Source: a virus
IMG/VR virus record: IMGVR_UViG_3300027608_000303
Span: 1 to 15,632 of that record
Length of the DNA stretch: 15,632 bases
Reading direction: 5' to 3' (one strand)
In this document: one piece after another, positions 1 through 13,739 of the stretch
Position numbering within the stretch: position 1 is the first letter of the stretch
How the letters are laid out: every line of letters begins with the position of its first letter
The notes under the pieces: model-generated
What the model saw: only the letters and a program-made list of their open reading frames with translations
Database searches by the model: none
What the model was told of the DNA's origin: nothing
Translations under genes and position numbers: made by a program

Positions 1-127
1 ACTGCGTTGATCGCTGGTCGGTCAGAGATTGTGTTTGTCACAAACTCGTTTAGGTGCTGTGGCAAAGTTAGGCCAGTGTTTGTGCTGGTGTCGTCATCCG
101 CAGCACGAACGTACATTTTGGAATCAT
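1..127. repeat. Terminal overlap, copy 1 (identical to 15506-15632); marks circular closure of a 15,505-bp unit
   Basis: Compared base by base: 1-127 and 15506-15632 are the same 127-nt string, and both copies are cut by the window edges. The ORF interrupted at base 1 continues in frame from 15505. Confidence 0.9.
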
Positions 128-809
128 CATCGCCCATAGCGGCTTTGATGGAGTGATCTAGGTAGCTGATGCCATCTACGATCGGTGAGCGTGGCTTAGT
201 AAATGCCACTGGTGCGGCAGCCTGAACAACCGCGCTGGCGGTTACTTCATCGGCCGCTGGGGCGGTGTTTTCGGTTTCCACAATTATCTCCTGTGGTTCA
301 TCCTCTGCGGCTTGTTCCGCTTCGGTGGTTTCTGGGTCGAGTTCGTCATCAGCCTCGGTAGCTGCAACGCTCGCTATTTGAGCATCCTTAAATGCTGGGT
401 TTGTTACATGGGCAACGGCTTCTAGATTGGCTGCACTTACAACCATCACACCGCGCTGGATTGTGTATTCATTGACGGCTGCCTCAATGCTAAATGCCGG
501 GCGCAATCCCTCAGATGCTTCGACTAGTGCATCATTGCCAGCATTAGTAGGTGCAATTTTGAATGCCATTGAAACGCCAGCAGGGCTGACTTCTAAAGAC
601 TCCGCGACTCCGCGACCTAGGGGTCTGGTTCTGTCATGCTCGCTATTAAGAATTATTTGGCTTGGATCGATGTCACCAAACGCGCCAAACTCAAAGCGCA
701 CTGGACCAGCCGATGTATTGCCAACTTTAGAAAACGGGACCACCAAACCTCTGATAGTTCTGGTTTCAACTGATGCGGCCAAGACTTGGCCCTCAAAACT
801 AATTTGCAT
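1..809 (-). CDS. N-terminal part of a prohead protease - acidic linker - major capsid protein fusion ORF (continues at 15505 in the circular molecule; 516 aa in total)
   Basis: Absent from the ORF track because it runs off the window start. The minus-strand ATG at 809-807 is preceded by GAGAGGAAA. I checked every codon from 807 down to 3 and found no stop. The frame matches the 14764..15621 ORF (809-116 = 693 = 3 x 231). The translation starts MQISFEGQVLAASVETRTIRGLVVPFSKVG and includes LNSEHDRTRPLG, GLRPAFSIEAAV and LEAVAHVTNPAF. That pattern fits HK97-type prohead proteases (MEROPS S78 / Peptidase_S78). An acidic stretch follows: ATEADDELDPETTEAEQAAEDEPQEIIVETE. Confidence 0.85.
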   Translation of the reverse strand, partial: MQISFEGQVLAASVETRTIRGLVVPFSKVGNTSAGPVRFEFGAFGDIDPSQIILNSEHDRTRPLGRGVAESLEVSPAGVSMAFKIAPTNAGNDALVEASEGLRPAFSIEAAVNEYTIQRGVMVVSAANLEAVAHVTNPAFKDAQIASVAATEADDELDPETTEAEQAAEDEPQEIIVETENTAPAADEVTASAVVQAAAPVAFTKPRSPIVDGISYLDHSIKAAMGDDDSKMYVRAADDDTSTNTGLTLPQHLNEFVTNTISDRPAINA

Positions 810-1926
810 TTTCTGTGTTTCCTCTCGGTGCAAGATCCATTTCTTCACGCGCTTCTTCAACGTCAATTAGTCCGTAGTCGAGCATTTTGCCAAGAACTTC
901 AATCTGCTCTAGTGGGTTTCCGCGTAAGTAATCATCTAGATCAAATCTGACAACTTGGCCTCTTGGAGTTATGTCATTCATGCTTAGACGTTCAGATACA
1001 CACGACATAAACGGTTTAAGGCTAAAGTCCACAAGGCTGCGGCGTTCTTGACTTACGTTGGAATAAGTTGCGCTGGCTGATTCGGCGTTGATGTACCAGG
1101 CAGGGATGTTGCACATACGCGCAATTTCAGCTGCGGTGTTCAAGCGTGATTCCGTCAACTGCATTTGTCCGGCATCGTATCCAAAAGTCGTGACATCTAA
1201 TGGGCCAGATAGGTATGCGGTTGAGCGTGTGGCTCGGGCTTGCTTCCACTGGGCCAGTAGGCTCGACACCTGCTCTGGCGGTAGATCCACGCCACTATTC
1301 TTGATTACCATTGTCGGGTTTGGCTCGGCGGCCATTCGGCTGACTGCCTTTTCAAGTTCCAAAGCGGTTGAGATAGTGCGGCCACCTCGGTTGAGTATGC
1401 CCTCGTCAATACCGCTAAACATAATGAGCGAGCCAACCCCAGTTATTGGGGTTAAGTATCCGTCAAGGTAAAAACCGTTTACGATCTCATCGGTCATTGT
1501 GTCAGTTGTAAAAGTCACGCGCATTGGATCTACACGCCGAGCCTGTGTTGGTCGGCCATCCTCTGGGCTAGTTGCCAAAACAACCCAAAAGGCTTGCCCC
1601 TGAAATAATAAGTCCTCTACAGTCCACGCCATAGTGACCGCTAATGGCAACGCTGGGTCGGGTTGCTTAAGTATGCTGCGGCCCTCAACCTTTTCGCCTG
1701 TAATTTCGTTGTATGAGTTAAGGCCGAGTGTAGCAATCGTGCCAGCAATGATGTTTCGCGCCCGGGCAACTGCTGGAACTTGCATTGCATCGGATCGGCT
1801 TACGCGGATCATTGCTAATGGCGACCAAGAATCTTGGTAATAGGGTATCTGCACACCAGCCTTAGCAGCTGCTTTAATCTCTGTTTTTTCTTGGCTAGTG
1901 CCAAGCAAAAAATCTATGAATCCCAT
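799..1926 (-). CDS. Portal protein (HK97-family type)
   Basis: 375-aa ORF directly after the large terminase and directly before the protease. The length and sequence character resemble Phage_portal family proteins. Its stop overlaps the next gene's start by 11 nt. Confidence 0.85.
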   Translation of the reverse strand: MGFIDFLLGTSQEKTEIKAAAKAGVQIPYYQDSWSPLAMIRVSRSDAMQVPAVARARNIIAGTIATLGLNSYNEITGEKVEGRSILKQPDPALPLAVTMAWTVEDLLFQGQAFWVVLATSPEDGRPTQARRVDPMRVTFTTDTMTDEIVNGFYLDGYLTPITGVGSLIMFSGIDEGILNRGGRTISTALELEKAVSRMAAEPNPTMVIKNSGVDLPPEQVSSLLAQWKQARATRSTAYLSGPLDVTTFGYDAGQMQLTESRLNTAAEIARMCNIPAWYINAESASATYSNVSQERRSLVDFSLKPFMSCVSERLSMNDITPRGQVVRFDLDDYLRGNPLEQIEVLGKMLDYGLIDVEEAREEMDLAPRGNTENAN

Positions 1927-1928
1927 TT

Positions 1929-2000
1929 TGTCATTACACCATAGGCAAATGACATTCGTGTAATTTGTCAGGCTTTGTCACTTTGTTGCGCGTGTTGTCA
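1929..2000. promoter_or_regulatory. Cluster of TGTCA/TGACA pentamers in the terminase-portal spacer (candidate protein-binding sites or RNA hairpin)
   Basis: TGTCA occurs at 1929, 1966, 1976 and 1996 (spacings of 10 and 20 bp among the last three), and TGACA at 1950. TGTCATT (1929-1935) and AATGACA (1948-1954) form a 7-bp inverted repeat with a 12-nt spacer, ending 2 nt from the portal ATG on the minus strand. Confidence 0.4.
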
Positions 2001-2001
2001 C

Positions 2002-3465
2002 CTATGCGCTGACTATGCTCACACTTTGTTGTGGCTCGGTGGCGTGACCCACTGCCATGACCAAAGCGATTGCAGCTGTGATCGGTACTTGCGCGGCTCG
2101 TCTAGCAATACGCCATCCGCCATCCGATGCCGGGCGGCGAGCGCAACTGACCAAGTGGCTGTGCATAGTTTCTTGGGCAGGATGTAGCAGCTGCCGAGAT
2201 TGCATTGCGTTCATTGCCTGGTCACACATGATCGAAAATCCTGCCGAGTTCCAAGGCGTTGGCGCTGTCGGGATTCCAGCCTGGGCAAGTCTTGGCGCAA
2301 TGTAGCCAGCAGTATTGGGATCATAGGCCAGCACCCTTGGGCGATAGCGCCGAGTCAGTGCGGCTATTTCCCCAGCTAGTTCTAAGTCGTTAATGCCGCC
2401 CTCTTTTTTCCATTCGTGCAGAAATACGCCATACCCGTTTTCTCTCTGTTGCAAAGTAACCAGGCAAGCCAACTCCCGATTGAAATTGAGATCCATTGCC
2501 ATCCAAGTTGGCAACCCATCCTCAAGCATGATGTCGGCTTCGCATTCGTTCCATACCTGCATTGGCCAAGGCGAGTCGATAGCATCCACCCACATACAAA
2601 GGGTTTCAGTTTTGAACGCATCGGGTGAGTCAAAGGTCGCAGCATCCTTGATGTTTTGTTCGTTAATTGTGTAGCCCATTGCAGGGTTGGCCATTTTCCA
2701 GGCTTCGATGTCGTCAACCGATGAACCTGCTGCGGCGCTGTATTCGTAGTAGCCCATTCGATCACTGGCAAAGGTCAGGGCGCGGCGGCGTTGTTCGTTT
2801 AGCACATTGGAAGTTAGATCCCCAGCATTGGATGTCCAAAACACTTGGGCATTGGGTCTGGCTCGGGTAATGGGGGTGACGGCTGCCCAAGTTGCCTCGT
2901 CAATTTCTCGCAGCTCATCGACATAAAGTAAGTCGGCGGTGCTACCGCGTGGCCCCTCGGATGTTGCGGCTCGGATGGAATATTTGCGAATACGCTCACA
3001 CTTTTGCCCACATGACTTGGGGTAATGATGGCAGTAAACCTCTAACTCCTCTTGGCCGTTAGTTCGGGAAACTCGCTTGATCCGCTTGCGCATCCAGTCC
3101 AGGCTTTCGGCCATGTCGACTGTTTGCTTGAAAGTGTCCAGCGATAGTTGCCGAGTCTGCGACATGGCGATGGCATTCTTTTCACCAAAGACATACAGGC
3201 CAGCCAAGATCCGCATCCGCATCATGTGCGTTTTGCCATTCTGCCGGGCGACCAAAACTCCTACACTTGAACGCGCCCACTTGCCATTTGGCAGAATCTT
3301 TAGGGCATCATCCATGACGTGTTGTTGCCAGGGTAGGAGTGGGACTCCTAGTTCGTCAGCTAGTGCCGATACCACTGGCCCTGCGCTGGGCAGGTTTAGG
3401 CTTGGGCTTTCGATCCTTGGCTTCGATAAGCCGTAGATAGTTTCCGACATGATTAGTCCCGTCAT
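2002..3465 (-). CDS. Terminase large subunit
   Basis: 487-aa ORF with a Walker A-like LVARQNGKT and a Walker B-like LLYVDELREID, followed by a C-terminal nuclease-sized domain. It lies between the small terminase and the portal. The start is uncertain (ATG 3465, ATG 3450 or GTG 3375). Confidence 0.92.
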   Translation of the reverse strand: MTGLIMSETIYGLSKPRIESPSLNLPSAGPVVSALADELGVPLLPWQQHVMDDALKILPNGKWARSSVGVLVARQNGKTHMMRMRILAGLYVFGEKNAIAMSQTRQLSLDTFKQTVDMAESLDWMRKRIKRVSRTNGQEELEVYCHHYPKSCGQKCERIRKYSIRAATSEGPRGSTADLLYVDELREIDEATWAAVTPITRARPNAQVFWTSNAGDLTSNVLNEQRRRALTFASDRMGYYEYSAAAGSSVDDIEAWKMANPAMGYTINEQNIKDAATFDSPDAFKTETLCMWVDAIDSPWPMQVWNECEADIMLEDGLPTWMAMDLNFNRELACLVTLQQRENGYGVFLHEWKKEGGINDLELAGEIAALTRRYRPRVLAYDPNTAGYIAPRLAQAGIPTAPTPWNSAGFSIMCDQAMNAMQSRQLLHPAQETMHSHLVSCARRPASDGGWRIARRAAQVPITAAIALVMAVGHATEPQQSVSIVSA

Positions 3466-3733
3466 TTTCCTCGCCCTGTTTTCCTAGTGTTCGTGTTTCG
3501 ACTGTGAGATGCAACTGCTGTAAGACTTGTAAATACTTTGCCGCCAAAGGCGTGGCCTCTTTGAGATCGCCCATGTCAAAAGCAGTATCTAATGCCAAGG
3601 CGATCCGCCGGGCGAGAGTCATGGCCGCTACATCAGTTGGCGCGATCCAATTCGCTACCGACAATGCAGAATTCAACGATAGGTAGATGCCCATTGGTTT
3701 ATCCTCTGGCGCTTCTGGATTCTTTAAGGTCAT
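3356..3733 (-). CDS. Terminase small subunit (putative)
   Basis: 125-aa ORF between the HNH gene and the large terminase. It is helical and has a basic C-terminal tail (KDRKPKPKPAQRR). The call rests mainly on position. An ATGA overlap links it to the HNH stop. Confidence 0.6.
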   Translation of the reverse strand: MTLKNPEAPEDKPMGIYLSLNSALSVANWIAPTDVAAMTLARRIALALDTAFDMGDLKEATPLAAKYLQVLQQLHLTVETRTLGKQGEENDGTNHVGNYLRLIEAKDRKPKPKPAQRRASGIGTS

Positions 3734-4077
3734 GGCTTGGGCCTTTCGGTTGTGGGTGGATCAAATCTGACCAATCGGGGAGAAATAAGAGAAAGGGAGT
3801 CTGTGGGTGGCACGGCCCTAGAAAAAACGCCCCTATGGCTCTCTGTGGCTCTCTGGCGTGTGCTGTTGAACCGTGATGTCTTGGCCTTATGACACGGCTT
3901 ACACAATGGTTGCACGTTGTCTATAGTGTTACTGCCCCCAGCGGCTAACTCGATGATGTGATCCACCTCTGTTGCCCGGTCACCACACATCAAGCACGAC
4001 TTGCCCCATACTCTGAAACACGCAGTCCGTAGATTGCGCCATTGGGTGGTAGTTCCCTGACTATGCGCTCTACTCAT
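3730..4077 (-). CDS. HNH endonuclease
   Basis: Contains CLMCGDRATEVDHIIELAAGGSNTIDNVQPLCKPCHKAKT, which carries CxxC, the H-N-H residues and a second CxxC. Placement next to the terminase matches the HK97-like cos packaging arrangement. Confidence 0.9.
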   Translation of the reverse strand: MSRAHSQGTTTQWRNLRTACFRVWGKSCLMCGDRATEVDHIIELAAGGSNTIDNVQPLCKPCHKAKTSRFNSTRQRATESHRGVFSRAVPPTDSLSLISPRLVRFDPPTTERPKP

Positions 4078-4321
4078 GCCCAGCCATTATGTTGTAAGCA
4101 TCCATCAATCCTCGTTCGTATTTGTAGTTTGCTGGATGTATGTCAAGTATGTAATCAGTCAGCTTATCTAAGCGTTGTTTGTATGTTGCTTCAATGATGC
4201 TTGCTAATTCTTTTGCATCCTTGATCTGTTCTTGTAGTTGCGTATGATCTTTCCTTAGATACTCAACCATCGCTACATACTCCAAGAGTTCATCGTGCTT
4301 TACCTGCACCCATCTCGTCAT
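4070..4321 (-). CDS. Hypothetical small coiled-coil protein
   Basis: 83-aa ORF that overlaps the HNH start by 8 nt. The sequence is heptad-like and charged (LQEQIKDAKELASIIEATYKQRLDKL). By hand count it is ~40% GC, lower than neighbouring genes. The Shine-Dalgarno is weak. Confidence 0.65.
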   Translation of the reverse strand: MTRWVQVKHDELLEYVAMVEYLRKDHTQLQEQIKDAKELASIIEATYKQRLDKLTDYILDIHPANYKYERGLMDAYNIMAGHE

Positions 4322-4690
4322 GATTTAGATCGTAACCTATACTTGCCACCCGAGCCGATAGGTGAGCAGGGAATGGCATTGAGTCAAGCCACTCGCCACC
4401 GTCACCGCGTAGGTTTGATTGGTCATGGGTGCTTTCGCACAATCGCGCCGTGTGCCTTAGTGCTGGGTGTTTTGATGCCAGGCGATTCGTGTTGACATCA
4501 GCTGCTAAGGCTCGCATTTCTGCTATTTCATGGGCTTATCAATCCATGCCGAGATACGCCATCTGACGGCGGTTCACCCGAGGATTGGTCGGGCATTAGT
4601 TATACTCTTAACTAGAGTGTTGAGGCTCACGATGTTAGCATCGTTATGAACGGCACGCGGTTCTTTCTTGGGATCCGCGTGTCGTTTGTT
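4322..4690. other. Largest non-coding region (369 bp); candidate cos / late promoter / structured RNA region
   Basis: No convincing ORF in any frame. The core is ~58% GC (hand count of 4341-4460), while the flanking genes are ~40-42% GC. It contains a perfect TTGACA (4492-4497, plus strand), TATACT (4601-4606, plus strand) and three consecutive hairpins. Confidence 0.6.
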
Positions 4691-4692
4691 TT
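4654..4692. terminator. Stem-loop directly after the last early gene; the T-tract is on the plus-strand side
   Basis: CACGCGG (4654-4660) pairs with CCGCGTG (4675-4681), and further imperfect pairs form in the 14-nt interior. On the plus strand it is followed by TCGTTTGTTTT (4682-4692). On the minus strand it starts 9 nt after the TAA of the 4691..4981 gene. Confidence 0.5.
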
Positions 4693-4981
4693 AAATCAAA
4701 TCTGCTGGTCCTAGTTTTTCGTAAAACTTTTCCCAATTACCACAGCAATGTGTCACCCACATACGCTCATTAGTATCAGGATCAACACCGAAATCAACTG
4801 GTTCAAGTATCTTGGCGCACTGTGGGCATGACTGTGGCAAGTTTTGAGCTGCTAGATAATGACCTCGTATCTTGCCCTCAATACTTGCCCAAACTGCATC
4901 GCTTGAAATTGGTTCTTTCATTATGTTTTCCAATACCCTTTCGATCTCATCCACGATTTTGCCATTTCTCACAAAAGTCAC
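4691..4981 (-). CDS. Hypothetical small Cys-rich (zinc-ribbon-like) protein
   Basis: 96-aa ORF with a GTG start at 4981 (an internal ATG at residue 21 is also possible). It carries CPQC and, 24 residues later, HCC. About 42% GC by hand count. Confidence 0.6.
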   Translation of the reverse strand: MTFVRNGKIVDEIERVLENIMKEPISSDAVWASIEGKIRGHYLAAQNLPQSCPQCAKILEPVDFGVDPDTNERMWVTHCCGNWEKFYEKLGPADLI

Positions 4982-5034
4982 ACGGCTTGCCTATGTATAC
5001 CCATCCACCGCAACCACAGCGCATGATGTCAGCA

Positions 5035-5409
5035 TCAGTTCCCATCGAATAACCTCACTTGCTCTTGTACCTGTCCACCGCGCCACACTGCCAACATTCG
5101 GCGATGGCTTGACTTGCGGTCTGCCGGGCGTTCCCCACATCGCCAGATCATGCCAGATCGAGCAACTGTGTTAAAGGCCGCCCCAATGACTTTGCCTGAT
5201 CCGCCTGGTGCGCCGATCTCGTTGACTACATCCTCGGCTGTAAAGGGTTTACCAGTGCGAGCCATTTGACGTATGCAGATTACGGCTTCGTTGTGCCAGT
5301 TCAGCTGTGATTCCTTAGCAATGGTTATGCCCTCGGCTTTGCCCATGATTCCCTGATGCCGACAGATCGCGCAAAACTTAGGCGCATCTGCACCATGTTC
5401 GCAGATCAC
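5035..5409 (-). CDS. Hypothetical DNA-binding-like protein with an N-terminal CEHG...CAIC zinc motif
   Basis: The track ORF is 5035..5433. A GTG at 5409 forms a GTGA overlap with the upstream stop and follows GGGA, so I prefer it as the start. The C-terminal half (FTAEDVVNEIGAP...VIGAAFNTVARSGMI...SSHRRMLAVWRG) resembles winged-helix-type segments I recall from actinophage proteins of unknown function. Confidence 0.6.
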   Translation of the reverse strand: MICEHGADAPKFCAICRHQGIMGKAEGITIAKESQLNWHNEAVICIRQMARTGKPFTAEDVVNEIGAPGGSGKVIGAAFNTVARSGMIWRCGERPADRKSSHRRMLAVWRGGQVQEQVRLFDGN

Positions 5410-5960
5410 GAGCGATCCCAAATGGCCGCGCATCGCTCGCCCTCGCCACCCACTGGGCAGACATAGCCAGCGTAGGGTGTGCCATCTTTCTTTAGGCCGG
5501 TCTTACGGCGCATTGGCCCATGCTTACATTCCGGAACGCTCAAGTCAGGCTCATCAACTAATGCCCAAGGGTCAACATCTTTTGGCTTTGCTGGCCCAGG
5601 TGCTTGACGATCCTTAGCTGCTTGCACCTCTTGTTTGGATGCAATGCCCTTTGATAACCCAAGCCCTAACGCCGCCAGGCAACGCCCCCAGGCTGATGTT
5701 TCAAGATTCTGGAGTTCACTGCCCCGAGTGTATGGAGTTTTGCCCTCGATCAGTTCGGCGGCTGTGCCTATGCCTGGTCGTTCATCGTCTGGTGTCCGGT
5801 ATGCGTAAGCGATGCCCCACATCATCAAAGGCGATCCCTCAAGTATTCCCTTGAATTCAAATTGCAATGAACCTTGGGGAAAAGTTTTATAGAATTCTTG
5901 AATTCTTTCTTGCACCGTTGTATATGATTCCAAATCAAATGCCATCAGATTTTCCGCCAT
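5406..5960 (-). CDS. Hypothetical protein with a C-terminal CKHG...C...C zinc ribbon; possible ssDNA-binding/annealing role (weak)
   Basis: 184-aa ORF. An alternative ATG at 5945 forms a TGATG overlap with the upstream stop. The segment LETSAWGRCLAALGLG loosely recalls Rad52/Sak-type annealing proteins, but I cannot confirm this by eye. The C-terminus reads PECKHGPMRRKTGLKKDGTPYAGYVCPVGGEGERC. Confidence 0.6.
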   Translation of the reverse strand: MAENLMAFDLESYTTVQERIQEFYKTFPQGSLQFEFKGILEGSPLMMWGIAYAYRTPDDERPGIGTAAELIEGKTPYTRGSELQNLETSAWGRCLAALGLGLSKGIASKQEVQAAKDRQAPGPAKPKDVDPWALVDEPDLSVPECKHGPMRRKTGLKKDGTPYAGYVCPVGGEGERCAAIWDRS

Positions 5961-6130
5961 CCATCAGAGATCATCTCATCCTCGATTGTGCGTTGACCTT
6001 GCGCCCATCGGCGGTAGTCAAGTTCCTTGCGCCTTAGTGACTGCTCTTGGTGATTATTCTCTATTGCTACACCGACAACTAAACCGATGATAAAGAATAA
6101 GCCAAAGCCTAAAATCGTTAATAGTCCCAT
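5945..6130 (-). CDS. Small membrane protein (one N-terminal TM helix, charged C-terminus)
   Basis: 61 aa, with LLTILGFGLFFIIGLVVGVAI followed by a charged tail. A good RBS (AAAGGAAACAGGGC) precedes the ATG. Confidence 0.65.
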   Translation of the reverse strand: MGLLTILGFGLFFIIGLVVGVAIENNHQEQSLRRKELDYRRWAQGQRTIEDEMISDGWRKI

Positions 6131-6145
6131 GCCCTGTTTCCTTTT

Positions 6146-6292
6146 CTATTTATCGAGATCGCTGGCTTTGTATCTCTTAACGCCGCCAATGCGTTTGGGC
6201 TTTAATGCCCCTGACTTTTCCCACCTGATAAGTGTGCGTTCACTTACCCGCAGTTTGTCAGCTGCCTCTTTAGCGGTTAGATACTTATCCAT
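6146..6292 (-). CDS. Helix-turn-helix DNA-binding protein (MerR/excisionase-like HTH_17 type), 48 aa
   Basis: Below the track length cut-off, so translated by hand: MDKYLTAKEAADKLRVSERTLIRWEKSGALKPKRIGGVKRYKASDLDK. The ATG at 6292-6290 is preceded by AAGGAAAGGGA, and the stop TAG is at 6146-6148. The pattern (L)T..EAA..L.VS.RT(L).W...G is classic for this HTH family. Confidence 0.8.
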   Translation of the reverse strand: MDKYLTAKEAADKLRVSERTLIRWEKSGALKPKRIGGVKRYKASDLDK

Positions 6293-6309
6293 ACGATCCC
6301 TTTCCTTAG

Positions 6310-6343
6310 TGACATACTATGACAATACCTGACATAGTATCTA
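6310..6343 (-). promoter_or_regulatory. Candidate early promoter overlapping a 27-bp near-palindromic operator
   Basis: TGACA occurs at 6310, 6320 and 6330, an exact 10-bp phasing. Bases 6314-6340 form an imperfect palindrome (ATACTATGaCA...TGaCATAGTAT), with 10 of 13 positions matched per arm. On the minus strand the region reads TAGATA (6343-6338), an 18-nt spacer, then TAGTAT (6319-6314), about 20 nt upstream of the HTH gene ATG. Confidence 0.45.
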
Positions 6344-6345
6344 GG

Positions 6346-6531
6346 TTATTCCTCGGGCGTGTCGTTATCGCGTAAAGGCAGGGTTATCAACCACACCAAA
6401 ACTCCCACGATAATCAGTAACCCTGTGACTTTTTTTGCTGATCCATCTAGGGTGAAATACGCGATAAGCAAGCCGACATAAGTGTATGTATCAGCCGTTA
6501 TTGCTGAAACGTACCTCTTGAGCCATTTCAC
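6346..6531 (-). CDS. Small membrane protein (two TM helices)
   Basis: 61 aa, with a GTG start in a GTGA overlap preceded by AAGGAG. Hydrophobic segments are YTYVGLLIAYFTL and VTGLLIIVGVLVWLITLPL. It is the last gene of the late operon. Confidence 0.7.
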   Translation of the reverse strand: MKWLKRYVSAITADTYTYVGLLIAYFTLDGSAKKVTGLLIIVGVLVWLITLPLRDNDTPEE

Positions 6532-7358
6532 TTTATTCTCCTTATGCTAGTTGCTATTTGTCCGACAAGGACTGCACCGATCACAACGCTTTGAGATTCC
6601 TCACGCTGGTCAGGGGTCATGTCATTGCCAACATTCAGAATGGCCTCGGCAGCTGCGATCACTTGTGCAGCGCCCGGCAAATCCGCCAAAACGGGTGGTA
6701 GTTCAATTACGATTGGGGGATCAGGTGCAAGTGCTGGTGGCTCTGGGGCAAGCGCTAGTGGTTGCGGTGCTAAAGGCGGTGGCTCGGATGCTACGACAGG
6801 TGGCAAGGGTGCTGGCGTTGGTGGCTCTGGCCGTGGTGTTGGTTCTGGTGTTTGTGTTGGTGTTGGCGTTGGCTCTGGGGCTGGCTCTGGCGCAACTACT
6901 GGCGGCGGGGTTGGCTCATCACTGACCACAGGCTGCGGCACTGGCGGATCGCTCGGGCTTGGTGTCGGTGTTGGCTCTGGCATCGGGGTGTCGCTCGGTG
7001 TGATTATTGGCTCGGGTATAGGTGTTGGATTAACTGGAGGAGGTTCAGATGGTAAGGGTTCTGGGATTATTCCTGCGTAGTAGCGTTGTGGATCATTTGG
7101 TAGCAAAGAGTCACTTATGTAAATTGTGTATGGGCCAGCCCAACCACCCTCACAATAAAGTTGAGCGATGTTCCCCTTATTTTCAAAGTATGGGTTCGAG
7201 TTATCCCAACCAGTTGAAAATGTCCTTTGCTCGCCAGTTATCGGATCGCCACAAGTAATTTCGGCAAAGCCAGTTGCAGCGAATGCTTTGGGCGGTTGCA
7301 ATAGCATCGTGAACCCTACGATGAAAGCGACAAATGCCACTCTCAAAGGCTTATTCAT
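6528..7358 (-). CDS. Secreted, proline-rich, C-terminally anchored envelope protein (function unknown)
   Basis: 276 aa. There is a signal-peptide-like N-terminus (MNKPLRVAFVAFIVGFTMLLQPPKAFA/AT), followed by a ~70-aa two-Cys globular domain. A ~125-aa Pro/Thr/Glu-rich linker spans residues ~98-222 (nt 6693-7067). The C-terminus has a hydrophobic segment, SVVIGAVLVGQIATSI, followed by RRIK. Confidence 0.8.
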   Translation of the reverse strand: MNKPLRVAFVAFIVGFTMLLQPPKAFAATGFAEITCGDPITGEQRTFSTGWDNSNPYFENKGNIAQLYCEGGWAGPYTIYISDSLLPNDPQRYYAGIIPEPLPSEPPPVNPTPIPEPIITPSDTPMPEPTPTPSPSDPPVPQPVVSDEPTPPPVVAPEPAPEPTPTPTQTPEPTPRPEPPTPAPLPPVVASEPPPLAPQPLALAPEPPALAPDPPIVIELPPVLADLPGAAQVIAAAEAILNVGNDMTPDQREESQSVVIGAVLVGQIATSIRRIK

Positions 7359-7744
7359 CAGACTAATTTGGCCTTGATCTGTCTGCCATCTAGGACTATC
7401 GGCGCAGCTGAATCATGCCAGATCCAAAAACCCACCGGCATTGACGGATTACAGTCGATGGTGTGTGACCAGTGCAAGTGATAAGTCTTGCCATCCCAGC
7501 CGCCGATGTTCTTATCATCGTGACCAGTTTCATCCAGTTTGTCTGTGCCAGGGTAACGACCAAAGCGGCCACGCAGTACCGAGCCACCCTTGCTGAATTC
7601 AACACGCAGGATTGTGATCCATTCCCATTGGCCAGCCTTGTCTACCTTGTAAGCAATTCCCTTTGGGTACTCGACCCATGTCCACGCTTTTGGTGGGATT
7701 GATTGTTTGCTAGCACCTGACTCAACTTTCCAAAGTTGGCTCAT
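7358..7744 (-). CDS. Hypothetical Trp-rich protein
   Basis: 128 aa with 9 Trp and no TM segment or signal peptide. An ATGA overlap links it to the holin gene, and a TGATG overlap links it to the next gene. Confidence 0.7.
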   Translation of the reverse strand: MSQLWKVESGASKQSIPPKAWTWVEYPKGIAYKVDKAGQWEWITILRVEFSKGGSVLRGRFGRYPGTDKLDETGHDDKNIGGWDGKTYHLHWSHTIDCNPSMPVGFWIWHDSAAPIVLDGRQIKAKLV

Positions 7745-7983
7745 TTTTCTAGTTTCTTATCGGCATCCGTAAAGATGTCGTTAATCTCTGCGTCATCTAG
7801 GTTGCCGTCTTTGAGGAATGCTCGGGCTAGTCCCTCGATAACTACGGCCACGCCACCAATGCCAGCAATGATGATTGCCTTGGCTGGCTCTACACCTGCC
7901 ACAGCTGATGCGCCTACGACTGAAAGGCTACTGGCTGCAAAGACTGCCACCATTCGTAGCAAAATGTTTTTGGTTTTGTTCAT
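7741..7983 (-). CDS. Holin (putative, two TM helices with a charged C-terminal tail)
   Basis: 80 aa. The two TM segments are LLRMVAVFAASSLSVVGASAVAG and AIIIAGIGGVAVVIEGLARAF, followed by an acidic/basic tail. It lies immediately downstream of the endolysin with an ATGA overlap. Confidence 0.65.
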   Translation of the reverse strand: MNKTKNILLRMVAVFAASSLSVVGASAVAGVEPAKAIIIAGIGGVAVVIEGLARAFLKDGNLDDAEINDIFTDADKKLEK

Positions 7984-8369
7984 GCTCCAAGGATCGCTTT
8001 CGGATCAAGGTCCTTTCCTGCGGACCATCTGATATTGTCGCGCATCTCAAAATGTAGATGCGGCCCTGATGAGTTTCCTGTGCTACCTGATTCGCCAATT
8101 ATCTGACCTTTTGTAACCATTGCGCCTGGCTTAATTCGTACTGCGTTTAGGTGTGCATAGATTACCCAGCCACCCTCGACCTTTTGCACAACCTGGTTGC
8201 CGTAACTTTTGCCCCAATTGGCGTTCTCGATCTTGCCGTCAGCTACTGCCAACACTGGTGTTCCTGTGGGTACTGCGAAGTCAACGCCTGTGTGGTAGCC
8301 CTTTGACCACATCTTGCCTGGCTTCTTGTATGCAGTGGTTATCTTGCCATTTTTAATTGGTAAAGCCAC
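7980..8369 (-). CDS. Endolysin, M23 (LytM-type) metallopeptidase
   Basis: Carries YHTGVDF (HxxxD) and GPHLHFE (HxH) motifs with typical spacing. The track ORF extends to 8417. I prefer the GTG at 8369, which shares one base with the upstream TAG and follows GGAAG. It is a single domain with no recognisable wall-binding module. Confidence 0.88.
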   Translation of the reverse strand: MALPIKNGKITTAYKKPGKMWSKGYHTGVDFAVPTGTPVLAVADGKIENANWGKSYGNQVVQKVEGGWVIYAHLNAVRIKPGAMVTKGQIIGESGSTGNSSGPHLHFEMRDNIRWSAGKDLDPKAILGA

Positions 8370-8617
8370 TACTCTGCCACTTCCAATGCAGGTCCTATAA
8401 AGTTTGTGCCATCCCATGCATAACCAATACCTGCATAAACAGATCGAAAGTTGTTATTGTAAGAAGTTTCAACCCAGTCGCCGCTTAAACCAATAGAAGC
8501 AATAAACGCTTGACCAACAGGTTCGCTGTCTGGAAAAGGTAAATCCTCTATTGTTTCATTGTTAACAACGATTACTTCAACAACATAACCATTTTCAACT
8601 CTTGCAAAATGTGCCAT
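8369..8617 (-). CDS. Small conserved hypothetical protein downstream of the fibre gene
   Basis: 82 aa, starting MAHFARVENGYVVEVIVVNNE. This N-terminal pattern resembles small proteins I recall seeing next to tail fibre genes in aquatic phages, but that is memory only. A TAATG overlap links it to the fibre gene. Confidence 0.65.
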   Translation of the reverse strand: MAHFARVENGYVVEVIVVNNETIEDLPFPDSEPVGQAFIASIGLSGDWVETSYNNNFRSVYAGIGYAWDGTNFIGPALEVAE

Positions 8618-9909
8618 TATGCCAACACCCTAACTATAACTATTCCTGAGCCGCCATTTTTGGAGTTTTTGCCAGCCCCGCCGCCGCCGCCGCCGCCGCC
8701 TGTATTAGCAGTTCCAGCGGTTGCATTATCTGCGTTTGAAGCACCGCCAGTGCCTCCGCCGCCGTCACCGCCTGCAGCTGTCGTGGTTAAATTTGAACCT
8801 ACTCCGCCACCACCGCCGCCGCCGCGTGTCACTGATGTACCAGTTATTGAACTTGCAACTCCGTCTCCACCTTCACGCGCAGCGTCTGTGCTACCAATTT
8901 CAGCAGCTCCCCCGCCGCCGCCGCCGCTTCGAGTAGCGATAACTGATGGCCCGCCTGCAAATCCTTGGCTAGAAGTTCCCGCGCCACCTGCAATTACTGA
9001 TACAATATAACCGCCGCCACCGCCGCCCGAGCCGCCAAGTGACCCAGCGGTTTCTTGCGCTCCGCCCCCGCCTCCGCCAACACTTGTTAAAAATCCAAAA
9101 TTAGAATTTGATCCATTAACACCGTTAGTCAAAGTAGCAGCCGAAATCTGGCCTGCGCCGCCTGCTCCAACGGCAGCGTAATACGTTCCCGTTTGACCTA
9201 TGTAAAGTTGGTTTTCAGCAGCAGCGCCGCCGCCAGATGATTCGCCTGAAACTGTGCAACGATAGCCGCCTGCCCCGCCGCCTGCTGCTGCATCGCCTGC
9301 GGTTGCATTTTCAGATGTTCCGCCGCCGCCGCCCCCAGCAATAACCAAAGCATCTACTAAACCAGTCTTTGTAAATGTTATTGTGCCGGCACCTGTAAAG
9401 GCATAAGCCTTGTAATTAATTCCGCCACTTGTGTAAGTAGTAACTGTGGGGCTGCCCGTAGTACCAGAAACGGAACTATCAGTTAAAGGAGCAACCCCAC
9501 CGCCAAAAGGGACAACAGTCCAAGCGTTTAAGCCTGTTCGTATTAATGAAGCTGATTGGTATTGCTCAAGAGTCGCAGCTAGATTTGTTACGGTTACGCC
9601 TGCACCCGCTGCAAAAGTTACAGTACCAGCGCCAAGACTTACCACGTTTAAGGTTGCATTGGTTGGCCACACTACCGACGCATTTGGTGGGATTGTGTAA
9701 GTTTGAGCGCCTGCGTTATTGGCCGTTACTGTCTTGCCAATGTCGCTAAGCGCAAAAGTGTATGTAGTGCCTGTCTGTGCTTGATAAGTCGGAATTGCTA
9801 CCGCGCTATCAAAGCCAGTGGCCACAGTCTGAATGGCAGATGCGCCATCCTTGACGTAGTCAGTATTCGTAGGGTAACTAATCCCTAGGTAGGTTGTTGT
9901 TCCAGCCAT
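8617..9909 (-). CDS. Glycine-rich minor tail protein / tail fibre (probable receptor-binding protein)
   Basis: 430 aa. The N-terminus (YLGISYPTNTDYVKDGASAIQTVATGFD) is fibre-like. Residues ~185-430 hold six runs of 6-8 consecutive Gly and end in GGSGIVIVRVLA. This layout is typical of the glycine-rich domain found at the C-termini of phage fibre proteins. Confidence 0.8.
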   Translation of the reverse strand: MAGTTTYLGISYPTNTDYVKDGASAIQTVATGFDSAVAIPTYQAQTGTTYTFALSDIGKTVTANNAGAQTYTIPPNASVVWPTNATLNVVSLGAGTVTFAAGAGVTVTNLAATLEQYQSASLIRTGLNAWTVVPFGGGVAPLTDSSVSGTTGSPTVTTYTSGGINYKAYAFTGAGTITFTKTGLVDALVIAGGGGGGTSENATAGDAAAGGGAGGYRCTVSGESSGGGAAAENQLYIGQTGTYYAAVGAGGAGQISAATLTNGVNGSNSNFGFLTSVGGGGGGAQETAGSLGGSGGGGGGYIVSVIAGGAGTSSQGFAGGPSVIATRSGGGGGGAAEIGSTDAAREGGDGVASSITGTSVTRGGGGGGGVGSNLTTTAAGGDGGGGTGGASNADNATAGTANTGGGGGGGGAGKNSKNGGSGIVIVRVLA

Positions 9910-9910
9910 G

Positions 9911-11155
9911 CTATAAGTCCTGCCATTCCTCTGTACTTGGAGTATAACTTGCCCACGTTACAGTTGGCGCTATTTGCAACCAAACTTTGTGTGGATATGT
10001 CTCGGACAAGGCCGAGCAAACTAAGGTTAGGTCACTTGTGTACCTAGTCAGATTCCATTTCATGCCCTCGACAAAGCCATCAAATGTTGTGCCAAAGACT
10101 GCTGGCAGATCTTGGGTATATACCGCCGATCCAACCATCATGTTTATAAGGGCATTTCTTGTGGCATCGCTTACGGTTGGGCTATGTAATGGAATGGTTA
10201 ATTCCTCGGGGTATGTGCGAGGGTATGCCCGGGATTCTAGGAATGCTGTTGCTTGGATCTCAGCATCTGCACCGTTGTGCAAGGTAGTTGATCTAGTGCC
10301 TGCCAACTGACCATAAGATTGCTGACTTGTGTAATCTGCTGCATAGGCTTCGCCATTGTTGCGATAAGTCACGGTTACATCATTCACAATTTCTGACCAC
10401 TGGGCGGCTTGTCGCAAGCCTGCTGCCAGTAGATCATCATCTGTCAAAGTTAATGGCACATAAACTGACCTAGCCCCGTATGAGTCATAGTGTAGAGAGC
10501 CATCAGGTGCTTCAAAAAGGAAACCGCGACCCGATTGGGCAGCTGATTGAACCAATGAAAGAGCATCGGTTAGGCCGCCTGAGTAGGCTTCTAGCTCGTA
10601 GGTTCCGGGCGTATCAATGTCTGCTATTAGATTATCAACTAAAGTTTGGTTAGTCCCATCCCAGTTTCCCCAAGTAGCAATGTTGCTAACACTTGACCAA
10701 ATCAGATCACCCGGCACTTCTGACCAGTCTTGCAAAAATACATCTGAAAGGATGTTTAAGACTCTTGTGCCGTCAAACTCTTTTGCAAAGCCAACCGCGC
10801 CAGTTGTATGTTTATTAACTAGGGCCAATGGGCCGACGGCTGTAATGTTGTAAATCGCCACAGATCCATCAGATCCATAAGCATCTAGGGTTATGTCAAT
10901 GTCCGAAATTATTCCCGTGTAAATTGTTTTGTAGGCCGCTGTTGAGTCTTGGATCTGGATCTCTACGCTGTCCGACAGATTTACGTTAAGGGCAGTGTCT
11001 GCATCAGTCCATAATCTAACGCTGGCAATGCCGGGTTGAGCCTGCTCGTAGATGTCGCGCCTGCCTAGGCTTATGCCAATGCTGCTAATTGTGTTGTCTG
11101 TGTATTCAACCGAACCAGCAAACACCACTTTTGGATAAGGCGTGTAAGTTGTCAC
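9911..11155 (-). CDS. Minor tail protein, distal tail protein (Dit)-like
   Basis: 414 aa, immediately after the tape measure, with a GTG start in a GTGA overlap. The assignment rests on position and size, plus a general resemblance of the N-terminal ~120 aa to siphovirus tail component proteins. Confidence 0.6.
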   Translation of the reverse strand: MTTYTPYPKVVFAGSVEYTDNTISSIGISLGRRDIYEQAQPGIASVRLWTDADTALNVNLSDSVEIQIQDSTAAYKTIYTGIISDIDITLDAYGSDGSVAIYNITAVGPLALVNKHTTGAVGFAKEFDGTRVLNILSDVFLQDWSEVPGDLIWSSVSNIATWGNWDGTNQTLVDNLIADIDTPGTYELEAYSGGLTDALSLVQSAAQSGRGFLFEAPDGSLHYDSYGARSVYVPLTLTDDDLLAAGLRQAAQWSEIVNDVTVTYRNNGEAYAADYTSQQSYGQLAGTRSTTLHNGADAEIQATAFLESRAYPRTYPEELTIPLHSPTVSDATRNALINMMVGSAVYTQDLPAVFGTTFDGFVEGMKWNLTRYTSDLTLVCSALSETYPHKVWLQIAPTVTWASYTPSTEEWQDL

Positions 11156-12459
11156 AATGTAGCCCCGACCAAGTTAATTGGGCCAGTCCGCCTTGCGCTG
11201 TTTTGTAGCAGCTTCTCGATCGATCGGCGAGCAGACTCTGCATCGACAATGCCATTTAGGTTGATGGTCACGTTTTGACCGCCTCCGGCATCAGGGCGAA
11301 CCGATCCAGATCCGCTAGGGACAAATAGTTCAGGGCCAAACTCGCCAACACGGTATGCCTGTCCACCCATTACTGAACCGCCAGCTGCTCTTGCCTTTGG
11401 TCTTGGCGTGAATCCTGCCTCTGGCAGGTTTATATTAAGTGGATTTTGAATAAATCGTAATGCTGGTAAAGCGGCTTGATAAGCATTTGAAATAGCGTTA
11501 ATGGCGTTTGCGACCGTTTCTAATGATGCTGCGATTCGTTCCATCATGCTGGCAGCACCTGGGCCACCGTCTGTAACGGTTGAAAATAGATTGCCAAAAG
11601 CATCGGTAACTGCTCTAAGTGCGCCGCCTAAACTAAATGCGCCATCGCCTTCAAAGTTTCCAGCTAGTTCCCTAGCACGATTGCTCAATCCCTCTGGATC
11701 CTCGCCACTAAATCCCTTGGCAACTTTGTTAACTTCCTCTAACAATGTTTTCATGGTTGGCAGTAATGCCACACCGATGGACTCTTTAAGTTCGCCTACG
11801 CGCTCTGTGACGATGGCCAACTGACCTGCATAGGTTTCGGTGTTGGCCTTAGCTGCGCCACCAAATAACCGTACAAGTTCATCTTGGACTACGTTAAAAT
11901 CTTTTGTTTTCTTGATGTTTTCATCAAGTGGAATGCCCAATTTAGTAAGCGCACCAATGTTGCCGTTGTAAGCCTTGGCGAGAGTCAGCGATACGGTTTC
12001 AAGATCTCGACCAGTTGATGCCGAAATGTCTAAGGCAAGGTTGGTTAGTTCTTGTGCTTTACCTACATCGCTAGTGGCTCGGGCAAGGTTTGCCAGTGCC
12101 GGGCGCAACTTGGTATCGGCTACGCCAAAAGCCAACTGTTGCTTGGTGATGTAAGCCTCGGTTGACTTAATTTGAGCATCGGTGGCATTGGTTGTGTTCT
12201 TTAAAGCTTCGGCAAGTTGCTTTTGTGATGCTTCATCCTCGACTGCCGCCTTGACACCATCAATACCAATCTTGACTGCATAAGCGGCGGCAGCTGCGCC
12301 AGCAACTACGAAAGCCGCAGCGGCAATCTTGCCGTACTTTTTAAGTCCGCCAGCAAAACCCTTGGCATCGTTATCAGCCTGTGCCAGGCTTCGGCCAAAC
12401 TGGTCTACATCAGCAAGCAAATTAAGTTTGAGTGTTCTTACATCAGCCATTGTTGTCAT
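11152..12459 (-). CDS. Tape measure protein
   Basis: 435 aa. It is Ala/Gly/Leu-rich and helical, with an N-terminal hydrophobic stretch (IAAAAFVVAGAAAAAYAV) and a segment like TNLALDISASTGRDLETVSLTLAKAYNGNIGALTKLGIPL, typical of tape-measure domains. The probable start is the second ATG at 12450, which has better RBS spacing. Confidence 0.9.
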   Translation of the reverse strand: MTTMADVRTLKLNLLADVDQFGRSLAQADNDAKGFAGGLKKYGKIAAAAFVVAGAAAAAYAVKIGIDGVKAAVEDEASQKQLAEALKNTTNATDAQIKSTEAYITKQQLAFGVADTKLRPALANLARATSDVGKAQELTNLALDISASTGRDLETVSLTLAKAYNGNIGALTKLGIPLDENIKKTKDFNVVQDELVRLFGGAAKANTETYAGQLAIVTERVGELKESIGVALLPTMKTLLEEVNKVAKGFSGEDPEGLSNRARELAGNFEGDGAFSLGGALRAVTDAFGNLFSTVTDGGPGAASMMERIAASLETVANAINAISNAYQAALPALRFIQNPLNINLPEAGFTPRPKARAAGGSVMGGQAYRVGEFGPELFVPSGSGSVRPDAGGGQNVTINLNGIVDAESARRSIEKLLQNSARRTGPINLVGATL

Positions 12460-12937
12460 CCCACTTTTCTATAACTCTTTTGCTAACCGCATCTTTCCAT
12501 CGGCGTGTCAATTCTGGCTGGATTCTTTTAAGTGTTATGAAAATGCCATAACCCTCATTACCTCTACCCTGTGCAGGTGAGCGATCAGGAAAGCGTCGAC
12601 CACCATTTTCAAATGGTGCAGGGCCGCCAAACTCTGATCCAAACAAAACCTGACCAGATACCGCGCCGCCACTAAATCGACCCTTACTGCCACCAATGGT
12701 TACGTTAGGTATGCGATCCTTGTTGGCTCGAATAGTTGCCGCGACCTTTTGGGCTTGGGCTGGCAATGGGTTGAAGTTATAGCTGCTTTGCATCTCTGTG
12801 GCCGACCACTGGCTAATGCTGGTCACGTCATCTTTTAGGGCTTTTTTTGCACCCTCATCCATCTCACGAAATGCCTTGTAAAGCGATTTAAAATCCCGAG
12901 AGTCAGGGGTCATCTTGACGGTTACTTTGTCAGCCAT
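12443..12937 (-). CDS. HK97 gp10-like tail-completion / neck protein (putative)
   Basis: The track ORF is 12443..12943. The ATG at 12937 lies 6 nt after AGAGGA, so I prefer it. The segments LFGSEFGG and GYGIFITLKRIQPELTRRW resemble the HK97 gp10 family as I remember it. The position between chaperone and tape measure is atypical. Confidence 0.5.
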   Translation of the reverse strand: MADKVTVKMTPDSRDFKSLYKAFREMDEGAKKALKDDVTSISQWSATEMQSSYNFNPLPAQAQKVAATIRANKDRIPNVTIGGSKGRFSGGAVSGQVLFGSEFGGPAPFENGGRRFPDRSPAQGRGNEGYGIFITLKRIQPELTRRWKDAVSKRVIEKWDDNNG

Positions 12938-13321
12938 GACCATTCCTCTCTTGTATCAGCGTTACTGCTGTTGTTATGTCAGCGAGCGACCAAGTCAAAA
13001 GATCGGCCAAAGGGATGCCGGTCGATGTTGCGATCCGCACCAGCGTGTCCCTTAGTTCTCTTTTGGGCTTTCCTCGACCACCTCAAAGGTTTCAAACTCA
13101 TTGGTAACCCAGGCTTGCTGACTTGGCAACTTGGTATGCCCTTGGGCCTTGGCGGCCTTGTAAAGCATACAAGTGATGACATCTAATGAACCTTGGCTCA
13201 TCTTGTCAGCAGCCTGGCTGACTGTGTAGCCGAGTTCGCGTTCGATCTCGATCCACAGCCAAGCCGACTCATCGCTCACTATGTAGTTATTGCCCTGTTT
13301 TGTTGTAACTGTGTATTGCAT
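12930..13321 (-). CDS. Tail assembly chaperone, -1 frameshift (G-T-like) product, ~130 aa
   Basis: After a slip at C CCA AAA, the -1 frame stays open for 43 codons: RELRDTLVRIATSTGIPLADLLTWSLADITTAVTLIQERNGHG. It ends at TGA 12932-12930. This ORF is not in the track because it has no start codon of its own. Confidence 0.6.
13052..13321 (-). CDS. Tail assembly chaperone (G-like, zero-frame product)
   Basis: 89-aa acidic protein between the major tail protein and the tape-measure region. It ends ...EESPKEN and contains a canonical slippery heptamer 6 nt (two codons) before its stop codon. Confidence 0.7.
   Translation of the reverse strand: MQYTVTTKQGNNYIVSDESAWLWIEIERELGYTVSQAADKMSQGSLDVITCMLYKAAKAQGHTKLPSQQAWVTNEFETFEVVEESPKEN
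13061..13067 (-). promoter_or_regulatory. Slippery heptamer C CCA AAA for -1 programmed ribosomal frameshifting
   Basis: Minus-strand CCCAAAA. In the zero frame the codons are AGC CCA AAA, which fits X XXY YYZ. Confidence 0.6.
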
Positions 13322-13343
13322 AAGGGTTGCCCTGTTCTATTCG

Positions 13344-13739
13344 TTAAGTGCGAGTTACTGTTCCATCCTCGACTACAAAAGATAGCGAGGTGGTTAGTAC
13401 GTCAGTGGCCGCGCCACCAACGGTTGGAAATACTGGGAATACGTTGCCAGCAAATGTGTCGCCGTTTACATCGAACGTGAATGCCAACGATGTGTCAGGT
13501 GATGAATTGGCTGCATCCCAAAGCGCGCTGATGATTCCAGCTGATGATGTGTCGTCTAGGTATAGTTCGACGTTTAGTGTCGCGAACTTGTCAACGGTCT
13601 TGTAAGCGCGACCCGATAGCACTTCAAGTACCTGCTGGTTGTTTTCGCGCTCAAGGGTGACTGTTGATGCCTGGTCAGCGTAACTCACCGAATTGATCGA
13701 TAAAGTCAACGAGCGACCAGTTATGTATGTTGCTGGCAT
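13344..13739 (-). CDS. Major tail protein (putative)
   Basis: The track ORF extends to 13835, but that part overlaps the upstream gene. The ATG at 13739 lies 7 nt after AAAGG and just downstream of the upstream stop at 13751-13753. This gives 131 aa starting MPATYITGRSLTL. The position immediately before the chaperone supports the call. Confidence 0.65.
   Translation of the reverse strand: MPATYITGRSLTLSINSVSYADQASTVTLERENNQQVLEVLSGRAYKTVDKFATLNVELYLDDTSSAGIISALWDAANSSPDTSLAFTFDVNGDTFAGNVFPVFPTVGGAATDVLTTSLSFVVEDGTVTRT

Follow-up and report, generated by a model that had tools for sequence, protein, structure and literature searches.

The stretch of viral DNA analyzed here, referred to as the window, comprises positions 1 to 15,632 of IMG/VR record IMGVR_UViG_3300027608_000303, and every gene called in it lies on the minus strand. 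Bases 1–127 are an exact copy of 15506–15632 and, because this 127-base terminal direct repeat is identical at both ends, the contig is circular or terminally redundant, with a unique length of 15,505 bases (49.9% G+C after removal of the overlap). Joining the ends yields a single minus-strand open reading frame (ORF) of 516 codons without an internal stop, which runs from ATG 809–807 down through base 1 and onward from 15505 to the stop at 14766–14764, and which encodes a prohead protease domain, an acidic linker and a major capsid protein in one chain. Within this gene, at codon 177, lies a conserved Shine-Dalgarno (SD) motif followed by six spacer nucleotides and a GTG (AGGAG-N6-GTG), which is probably an internal start that makes most capsid subunits without the protease.

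The same ORF is uninterrupted over the junction position in independent linear IMG/VR contigs, one of which (L010) differs from the window at 32 of 1551 nt, so that the fusion is not an assembly artefact. A first-pass annotation, made from the letters of the window, had already proposed a single 516-residue polypeptide spanning the junction, and this proposal was confirmed; the stop codon or frameshift between 117 and 809 that it had named as evidence to the contrary was not borne out by the independent contigs. Its statement that no separate scaffold gene exists also holds for our gene map, as neither a separate protease gene nor a scaffold gene was found between the portal gene and the next gene (14115–14690).

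By profile comparison and by its catalytic residues, the segment covering residues 15–148 is a relative of the S78 peptidases that falls slightly under the Pfam threshold. Pfam Peptidase_S78 (PF04586) aligned with residues 40–149 and scored 20.1 bits (E = 7.6e-4; gathering cut-off 21), NCBIfam proheadase_HK97 (TIGR01543) scored 25.3 bits against a cut-off of 59 (E = 1.4e-5), and relatives at 64–66% identity have precomputed PF04586 matches. Comparison of the family profile with HK97 gp4, entered into hhalign as a single sequence, gave a probability of 86% (E = 5e-6) with His58 on gp4 His65. The L-INS-i alignment of the family, with zero net indel, likewise placed His58 on His65 and put Ser107 on Ser114, the two residues that we take to be catalytic in gp4, whereas hhalign set Ser107 opposite Ser118, a four-residue shift that leaves some ambiguity, with Ser114 preferred. 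The first-pass annotation had singled out His58 and Ser107 as candidates in HK97-protease-like motifs and pointed to a spacing of ~49 residues in gp4; the motifs are in place, both residues are invariant in 138 of 138 relatives, and their spacing is exactly 49, like that of His65 and Ser114. Since His58 and Ser107 are, with Ala139, the only invariant columns of the 138-sequence alignment, in which identity drops to 22%, selection acts on the enzymatic role of the protease. With 70 close homologs as input, AlphaFold left the N-terminal 206 residues at a predicted local distance difference test score (pLDDT) of ~30, while the 138-sequence alignment resolved residues 15–148 as a beta-rich domain (pLDDT 85–90), which was matched in BFVD by a predicted free HK97-family proheadase model (TMt 0.78). 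Sequence searches of the PDB found no solved structure homologous to the protease domain, and a PDB fold search returned only capsid proteins within its top 50 matches. Separately, a marginal profile match (E = 0.29) over protease/linker profile positions 107–202 was obtained for chain AA of PDB entries 9sz9/9sza, a 'major capsid protein' of 516 residues that might be a solved capsid from a protease-fused gene.

The Glu/Asp/Ala-rich linker that follows (residues ~149–202) carries a net charge of −16 over 55 residues and is predicted to be disordered (AlphaFold pLDDT ~33). Its length across the family ranges from 30 to 129 residues, the median charge is −12, and Ala, Glu, Thr, Pro and Val are abundant in it, its character being kept but not its sequence. 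The segment had initially been described as acidic and scaffold-like, of which the first attribute stands and the second is doubtful, the segment being disordered and located mostly upstream of the candidate internal start. For the latter reason, the acidic tether would be present in the long form only. Further downstream, residues 213–238 form two conserved short helices that include the nearly invariant Ala236–Ala237 and, judged from the model, could be either a short scaffold/delta-like segment or an N-arm.

Residues ~245–516 are an HK97-fold major capsid protein and a clear member of the HK97 family, as originally assigned. Both curated cut-offs were exceeded, by Pfam Phage_capsid (PF05065, residues 246–513, 37.7 bits versus 24.2) and by NCBIfam major_cap_HK97 (TIGR01554, alignment beginning at residue 145, 55.5 bits versus 27.5). 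The capsid body was modeled at pLDDT 85–95 (residues ~260–516; whole-model mean 79), and Foldseek matched it to the HK97 capsid 1ohg_A (TMt 0.75, E = 7e-13) and to many other phage capsid proteins; the best BFVD matches were full-length models of 493–510 residues that derive from uncultured phages and bear the name 'prohead protease' or 'major capsid'. In the HK97 alignment, residue 245 corresponds to gp5 residue 113, an offset that would place a putative maturation cleavage site near residues 205–240; by the same offset argument, the equivalent of the gp5 maturation site Lys103/Ser104 may lie near Ala236–Ala237.

Table 1. Features of the window, followed by candidate internal start sites in relatives.
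Feature	Position	Strand	Basis or remark
Fusion ORF, part 1: codons 1–269 and two bases of codon 270	1–809	−	translation over the junction; homologs share the start Met
Fusion ORF, part 2: remainder of codon 270 to codon 516 and stop	14764–15505	−	contiguous in independent contigs L010–L012
127-base assembly overlap, no extra sequence	15506–15632	.	identity to 1–127
SD-like motif GAGAGGA, 10 nt upstream of ATG 809	820–826	−	duplex energy −5.8
Prohead serine protease domain, residues 15–148, HK97 gp4 / MEROPS S78 type	366–767	−	profiles and model
His58 codon, predicted catalytic histidine, in NSEHD	636–638	−	aligned with gp4 His65; invariant
Ser107 codon, predicted nucleophile, in AFSIEA	489–491	−	aligned with gp4 Ser114; invariant
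Acidic disordered tether, residues 149–176	282–365	−	pLDDT ~33; residues 141–176 net charge −12
Codons 159–201, suppressed synonymous variation	207–335	−	normalized synonymous entropy
Candidate internal SD AGGAG, codons 173–174 (CAG GAG)	288–292	−	duplex energy −7.1
A/T-rich 6-nt spacer ATAATT, codons 175–176	282–287	−	most variable bases of a near-invariant stretch, 50–60% consensus
Candidate start GTG, codon 177 (Val)	279–281	−	340-aa, 36.0-kDa protease-less capsid precursor
Hairpin AACCGC-CAGC-GCGGTT, 36 nt downstream of GTG	228–243	−	stem kept in both variants, loop differs
Two conserved short helices, residues 213–238	96–173	−	AlphaFold helices 213–224 and 228–238, pLDDT 63–87
HK97-fold capsid body from residue ~245	1–77, continuing 14767–15505	−	Pfam, Foldseek
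Portal	799–1926	−	PHROG 12 portal, E = 2e-42
Large terminase	2002–3465	−	
Small terminase	3356–3733	−	
HNH endonuclease	3730–4077	−	directly upstream of small and large terminase genes
M23 peptidase	7980–8417	−	
Presumed tail and tail-fiber genes	8617–11155	−	
Tape-measure protein	11152–12459	−	
Presumed head-tail and tail genes	about 14690 down to 12443	−	
Small DNA-binding and unknown genes	remainder	−	
Site in L005			GAA GGA GAA CAA GTG
Site in L006			GAA GGA GAC GAA GTG
Site in L007			GAG GAA AAC ACA GTG
Site in sub-family of 25 sequences			AAA GGA GAC GAA GTG; Gly always GGA, Val always GTG, spacer 5 or 8 nt
Site in L129 group			AAG GAA GGG TCA GAA ATG
Site in L151 group			GAA GGA GAA AAA GTG
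Site in L115 group			GAGG-N5-GTG
Site in L164			GAGAGGA-N7-GTG
Site in L165			GGAG-N5-ATG
Site in L167			AGGAG-N8-GTG
Site in Gordonia phage GMA5			CAGGAGGA-N7-ATG, −10.0 kcal/mol
Site in Gordonia phage Rahul			AGGAG-N8-ATG
Site in Rhodococcus phage RRH1			GAAGGA-N9-ATG
Site in Arthrobacter phage Muttlie			GAGG-N5-ATG

By sequence comparison, the ORF belongs to a published family of ~15-kb siphovirus-type phages, the 'major capsid and protease fusion protein', and adds a new metagenomic member to it. Such fusions have been described for small-genome actinophages (PMC5513430, PMC7302621), including the fused protease-capsid gene of cluster AN and RRH1 (Klyczek et al. 2017, PMC5513430), in agreement with what the first-pass annotation had stated of some small actinophages. 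PHROG 2263 covered residues 9–515 with profile positions 31–543 of 551 (E = 1.9e-68), and tblastn against cultured phages retrieved 73 records, nearly all of them ~15–17-kb actinophages of Arthrobacter, Gordonia, Curtobacterium and Microbacterium. The cultured homologs carry the family name as their annotation and stand in the syntenic order terminase, portal, fusion, adaptor, with Muttlie, Penoan and Adaia showing the same gene order as the window. Matching proteins in the databases number more than 4,800 at E ≤ 1e-3, the best 120 of which are nearly all full length (510–517 aa), and a further search yielded 476 matching IMG/VR loci. The protease domain alone matches 1,235 cluster representatives; among the best 149 of these, 106 have at least 450 residues and carry the protease domain N-terminally, and the shorter ones mostly look like contig-end fragments. 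The fusion, which had been regarded as rare but not unprecedented, is a published hallmark with thousands of metagenomic members and hence not rare.

The actinophage fusions (Arthrobacter clusters AN/AX/FE, Gordonia CW/DM, Microbacterium EE, Rhodococcus phage RRH1 and Curtobacterium phage Penoan) share with the window protein the succession of S78 protease, low-complexity linker and HK97 capsid as well as a genome of ~15 kb, and the AN-like group also resembles it in length (~510–530 aa). The window protein is 25–38% identical to the fusions of cultured phages, a whole-genome megablast against cultured phages gave no nucleotide match, and the window has ~50% G+C compared with ~60–69% in Gordonia phages (PMC5559632). 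With the exception of one Pseudomonas record, all cultured relatives found by tblastn infect Actinobacteria. A 48%-identical fusion gene on an 11.7-kb contig (L005, JBMTBW010000024.1) in a metagenome-assembled genome (MAG) of Candidatus Nanopelagicaceae (freshwater acI) provides a weak host hint. Other relatives (L006, L007 and L008) occur in Pseudomonadales and Bacteroidetes bins, where they may be mis-binned, and on a 102-kb Actinomycetes MAG contig that could be a prophage. In the window itself, the C-terminal Cys-containing part of a 184-aa protein (5406–5960, minus strand) matches Pfam Phage_gp49 (mycobacteriophage L5/D29 gene 49), which is a further actinophage link.

To characterize possible internal starts, 77 distinct relatives were scanned at the DNA level for every in-frame ATG, GTG and TTG. 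A GTG stands at codon 177 in 73 of them, each with an SD duplex energy of −5 or below (mean −7.0), compared with a mean of −4.9 at the annotated start; at no other in-frame NTG of this gene do conservation and an SD motif coincide. Codons 172–177 of the window read CCA CAG GAG nnn nnn GTG, and codon usage at these positions departs from that of the rest of the gene: GTG encodes Val177 in 100% of the 73 clade members (against 22% of Val codons over the whole gene), 65 of 66 Gln codons at position 173 are CAG (98% versus 55%), and Glu174 is GAG in 96% of Glu codons (versus 34%). The two spacer codons, in turn, vary in both sequence and amino acid across the clade, which is reflected in the clade consensus CCACAGGAG-ATCACA-GTG-GAA with its 90–100% conserved SD, 50–60% conserved spacer and 100% conserved GTG. 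With SD and start codon fixed and the spacer free, the site resembles a ribosome-binding site (RBS), and an ordinary gene start in the same genome, AAGGAGAATAAA-GTG at 6531, is of identical design. As GTG initiation inserts Met and not Val, a short form started here in the window would have the N-terminus M-ETENTAPAADEVTASAVVQ... (M-ETENTAPAADEVTASAVVQAAAPVAFTK), with Met or formyl-Met replacing Val. No description of an internal start in protease-capsid fusions was found in the literature searched, the coverage of which was incomplete and makes this weak evidence of absence; a conserved RBS with GTG inside the fusion gene looks new to us.

In diverged lineages, an SD motif with an in-frame start also lies at this domain boundary, some tens of residues past the protease domain, encoded by different amino acids (EGEQ-V, EGDE-V, EENT-V, KGDE-V, KEGSE-M, EGEK-V, RKEAV-M, QEDTT-M, GETP-M and EGTPA-M). 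The start is ATG in the cultured relatives, in contrast to the GTG behind AGGAG of the window. In GMA5, Rahul and RRH1, the sequence after the internal Met begins with Asn, continues as a conserved helical segment and looks like the start of a free-standing scaffold/capsid protein. Outside the actinophages, orf21 of Lactococcus phage Q54 (L174 10783–12336, 517 aa), a protease-capsid fusion despite its annotation as 'head maturation protease', carries AAGAGGA-N7-ATG at Met144; behind it comes MTFDQNLMQELLDAKKLAADLNAKLKE, a coiled-coil-like stretch resembling the HK97 delta domain. This phage of a Firmicutes host, and thus of a different phylum, shows the same proposed nested design. Under a spacing-aware criterion, a site was present in 19 of 22 clusters formed at 70% identity against 7.7 expected from codon shuffles of each linker (Poisson-binomial P ~3e-7, the clusters not being phylogenetically independent), compared with 8 of 22 clusters in the +1 frame and none of 22 in the +2 frame.

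The nucleotide constraint around the site extends further than an RBS needs. In the window's clade, normalized synonymous entropy over codons 159–201, a stretch of ~130 nt that contains 18 of the 30 lowest-entropy columns, is 0.20–0.30 compared with 0.43–0.74 elsewhere. Two sequence variants of this stretch are common to genes that are otherwise 60–65% identical, which suggests recombination at the boundary between the protease and capsid modules. A hairpin downstream of the GTG keeps its stem in both variants, and the predicted RNA fold of region 200–360 has a z-score of −2.46. Candidates for the additional constraint are a ribosome standby or unstructured landing region and a recombination sequence at the module boundary. 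An antisense ORF at 203–361 (plus strand, 52 aa) was considered as the cause and rejected, its frame and length being unconserved and its product an Arg/Pro/Leu-rich nonsense peptide; antisense frames are open in all lineages through composition. A scan of 1–1000 for internal sigma-70-type promoters, which excludes actinobacterial promoter types, found none. The same interval holds three terminator-like sites against 1.0 ± 1.1 expected, and one of them, a plus-strand hairpin with T-run at 253–276 that is antisense to the capsid gene, is probably a chance occurrence.

The first-pass annotation had arrived at a different stoichiometry, in which only the 516-residue chain is made and every subunit brings protease and acidic segment in a 1:1 ratio, to be cut off after assembly. 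It had considered Met232 alone and missed the conserved site at codon 177, and the 1:1 ratio is probably wrong. Several observations nevertheless weigh for it, or against internal initiation. The ORF is unbroken in thousands of genomes, the conserved stretch with its hairpin is wider than an RBS, and its two variants shared by diverged genomes point to recombination, such that AGGAG-N6-GTG might be a by-product of a ribosomal pause behind the protease domain, mRNA structure or an inter-module recombination hot spot, and the invariance of SD and GTG could in part result from some other constraint on codons 159–201. As acidic linkers are rich in GAG, GAA and GGA codons, SD-like motifs arise easily in them, and codon-shuffled linkers still score a site in 17–77% of cases per sequence. 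Five of the 22 clusters fall within the window's own clade. In the window sequence, a segment of the SD is able to base-pair with the GTG in a weak hairpin. In Adaia, Penoan and Corgi, nothing beyond weak AAGGA motifs or unusually spaced sites is present, and Gordonia phage Emperor (L173 gene 10) is the one fusion examined that lacks an SD with start in its Pro/Ala-rich linker; it is possibly a natural 1:1 case or uses a different mechanism. A protease on every subunit would also be sterically possible, as ~240 copies of 25 kDa amount by rough arithmetic to about one third of a T=4 procapsid, T=4 being the shell that we assume for a 15.5-kb genome by analogy with SaPI1, and P2 gpO is a working protease fused 1:1 to an assembly protein.

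However, a pause or recombination site needs no in-frame start 5–8 nt downstream, yet such a start accompanies the motif in far more clusters than codon shuffling predicts. The GTG or ATG is kept in lineages whose SD is encoded by unrelated amino acids, the spacer is the sole freely varying part of the conserved stretch, and in several lineages the residues after the Met resemble the N-terminus of a free-standing capsid/scaffold domain.

Independent translation of the capsid from one of the two in-frame ATGs slightly upstream of the capsid fold, Met225 or Met232, was also considered and is very improbable. Of 117 close relatives, 83 have Gln and only 23 have Met at position 232, position 225 is occupied by Met in 67 and by Leu in 45, and neither Met is conserved in the diverse alignment. 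Their SD duplex energies are +1.1 and −3.0, and none of 63 start codons in column 225 of the 77 DNA relatives has an SD motif; both were rejected as internal starts. The earlier remark that no good RBS precedes the internal Met232 is thus correct, and an independently translated capsid from that ATG, which had been listed as a finding that would speak against the single chain, is disfavored. Least tenable of all, to the point of being barely credible, is the reading of the fusion as an artefact of a missed stop or frameshift, or of its N-terminal domain as a dead protease relic acting only as scaffold: the ORF does cross the artificial window junction and the S78 score is marginal, but independent linear contigs carry the same unbroken frame, His58 and Ser107 are invariant where almost nothing else is, and the protease domain is better conserved than the capsid domain.

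With moderate confidence, we therefore favor a nested gene with two co-terminal products, a 54-kDa protease-capsid form and a 36-kDa capsid-only form, and no obligate 1:1 ratio between protease and capsid. The long form (516 aa, 54.4 kDa) would start at ATG 809, which overlaps the end of the portal gene (stop 801–799) by 11 nt; owing to this overlap, its translation is probably coupled to that of the low-copy portal and would yield small amounts. A similar overlap of the long-form start with the portal stop is present in the relative L004 and in Muttlie, Penoan, Adaia and Q54. The short form (340 aa, 36.0 kDa), initiated at GTG 281–279, would consist of the capsid protein with an N-terminal extension of ~60 residues and no protease. 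Both forms would co-assemble via their identical capsid parts, such that a minority of subunits would bring a tethered protease into the procapsid on an acidic leash of ~30 residues, and the protease would excise itself together with the tether and the N-terminal extensions once the shell had assembled. That 'protease-capsid fusions' in general are nested gene pairs, in dozens of cultured actinophages, Q54 and thousands of ~15-kb environmental phages, is a broader claim to which, from the sequence patterns described, we give slightly better than even chances.

The remaining genes of the window are listed in Table 1. The small and large terminase ORFs overlap by ~110 nt, which suggests that the TerL start may lie further downstream. 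A 430-aa protein with long Gly-rich runs (8617–9909, minus strand; PHROG 2295 of unknown function, E = 1.9e-42) is probably a tail fiber or receptor-binding protein. A gene at 6528–7358 (minus strand), separated by two small ORFs from the M23 peptidase gene upstream of it, encodes a 276-aa protein in which a hydrophobic N-terminal segment is accompanied by a long repeat-like region extremely rich in Pro, Thr and Glu; the protein has no family match and may be involved in lysis or related to the envelope.

Fusions of this kind were known before, and the window adds a new environmental member to a family whose match counts show how abundant these tiny phages are. If the nested reading is true, a class of annotated 'fusion' genes would have to be reread, with a second product to annotate in each, and the sub-stoichiometric supply of protease in minimal phages would be explained without a separate gene or targeting peptide. 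Protease encapsidation would then be achieved in a third way, by using an entire capsid subunit as targeting signal, and nesting would extend the logic of the lambda and herpesvirus nested genes to the capsid protein itself, and would offer a clean and easily tested example of gene nesting for assembly stoichiometry. Should the internal start be non-functional, these phages would provide natural capsids assembled with a protease on every subunit, which would also be informative.

Among known systems, HK97 gp4/gp5 shares with the window gene the 49-residue His–Ser spacing, the HK97 capsid fold and the lack of a separate scaffold gene, and its protease gene lies directly upstream of the capsid gene, as in the domain order found here. 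In HK97, however, gp4 and gp5 are separate genes with a stop between them, and gp4 has ~75 residues after its protease domain, forming a C-terminal tail that targets gp4 into the procapsid. In the window gene, this C-terminal region is replaced by the acidic tether that reads through into the capsid protein, and the helical delta domain of gp5, at 103 residues, far exceeds the proposed short-form extension (~60 aa with two short helices) in length. P2 gpO likewise combines protease and assembly protein in a single chain from which the protease releases itself, but it has no internal start, and its fusion partner is a scaffold rather than a capsid protein. The closest parallels are lambda C/Nu3, herpes simplex virus 1 (HSV-1) UL26/UL26.5 and HFTV1 gp17/gp17.5, in which a long form with an N-terminal protease is accompanied by an in-frame, internally initiated, co-terminal short form, the short form is presumed to be the more abundant, and the protease enters the shell covalently attached to the assembling protein. 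Internal initiation has been shown experimentally in these three systems, whereas here it is deduced from sequence. The part shared by both products is a departing scaffold in lambda, HSV-1 and HFTV1, while here it would be the capsid protein itself, the short product being capsid protein with its extension and not a scaffolding protein. Judged by this analogy, the proposed arrangement works like the nested protease genes without being a strict member of their class.

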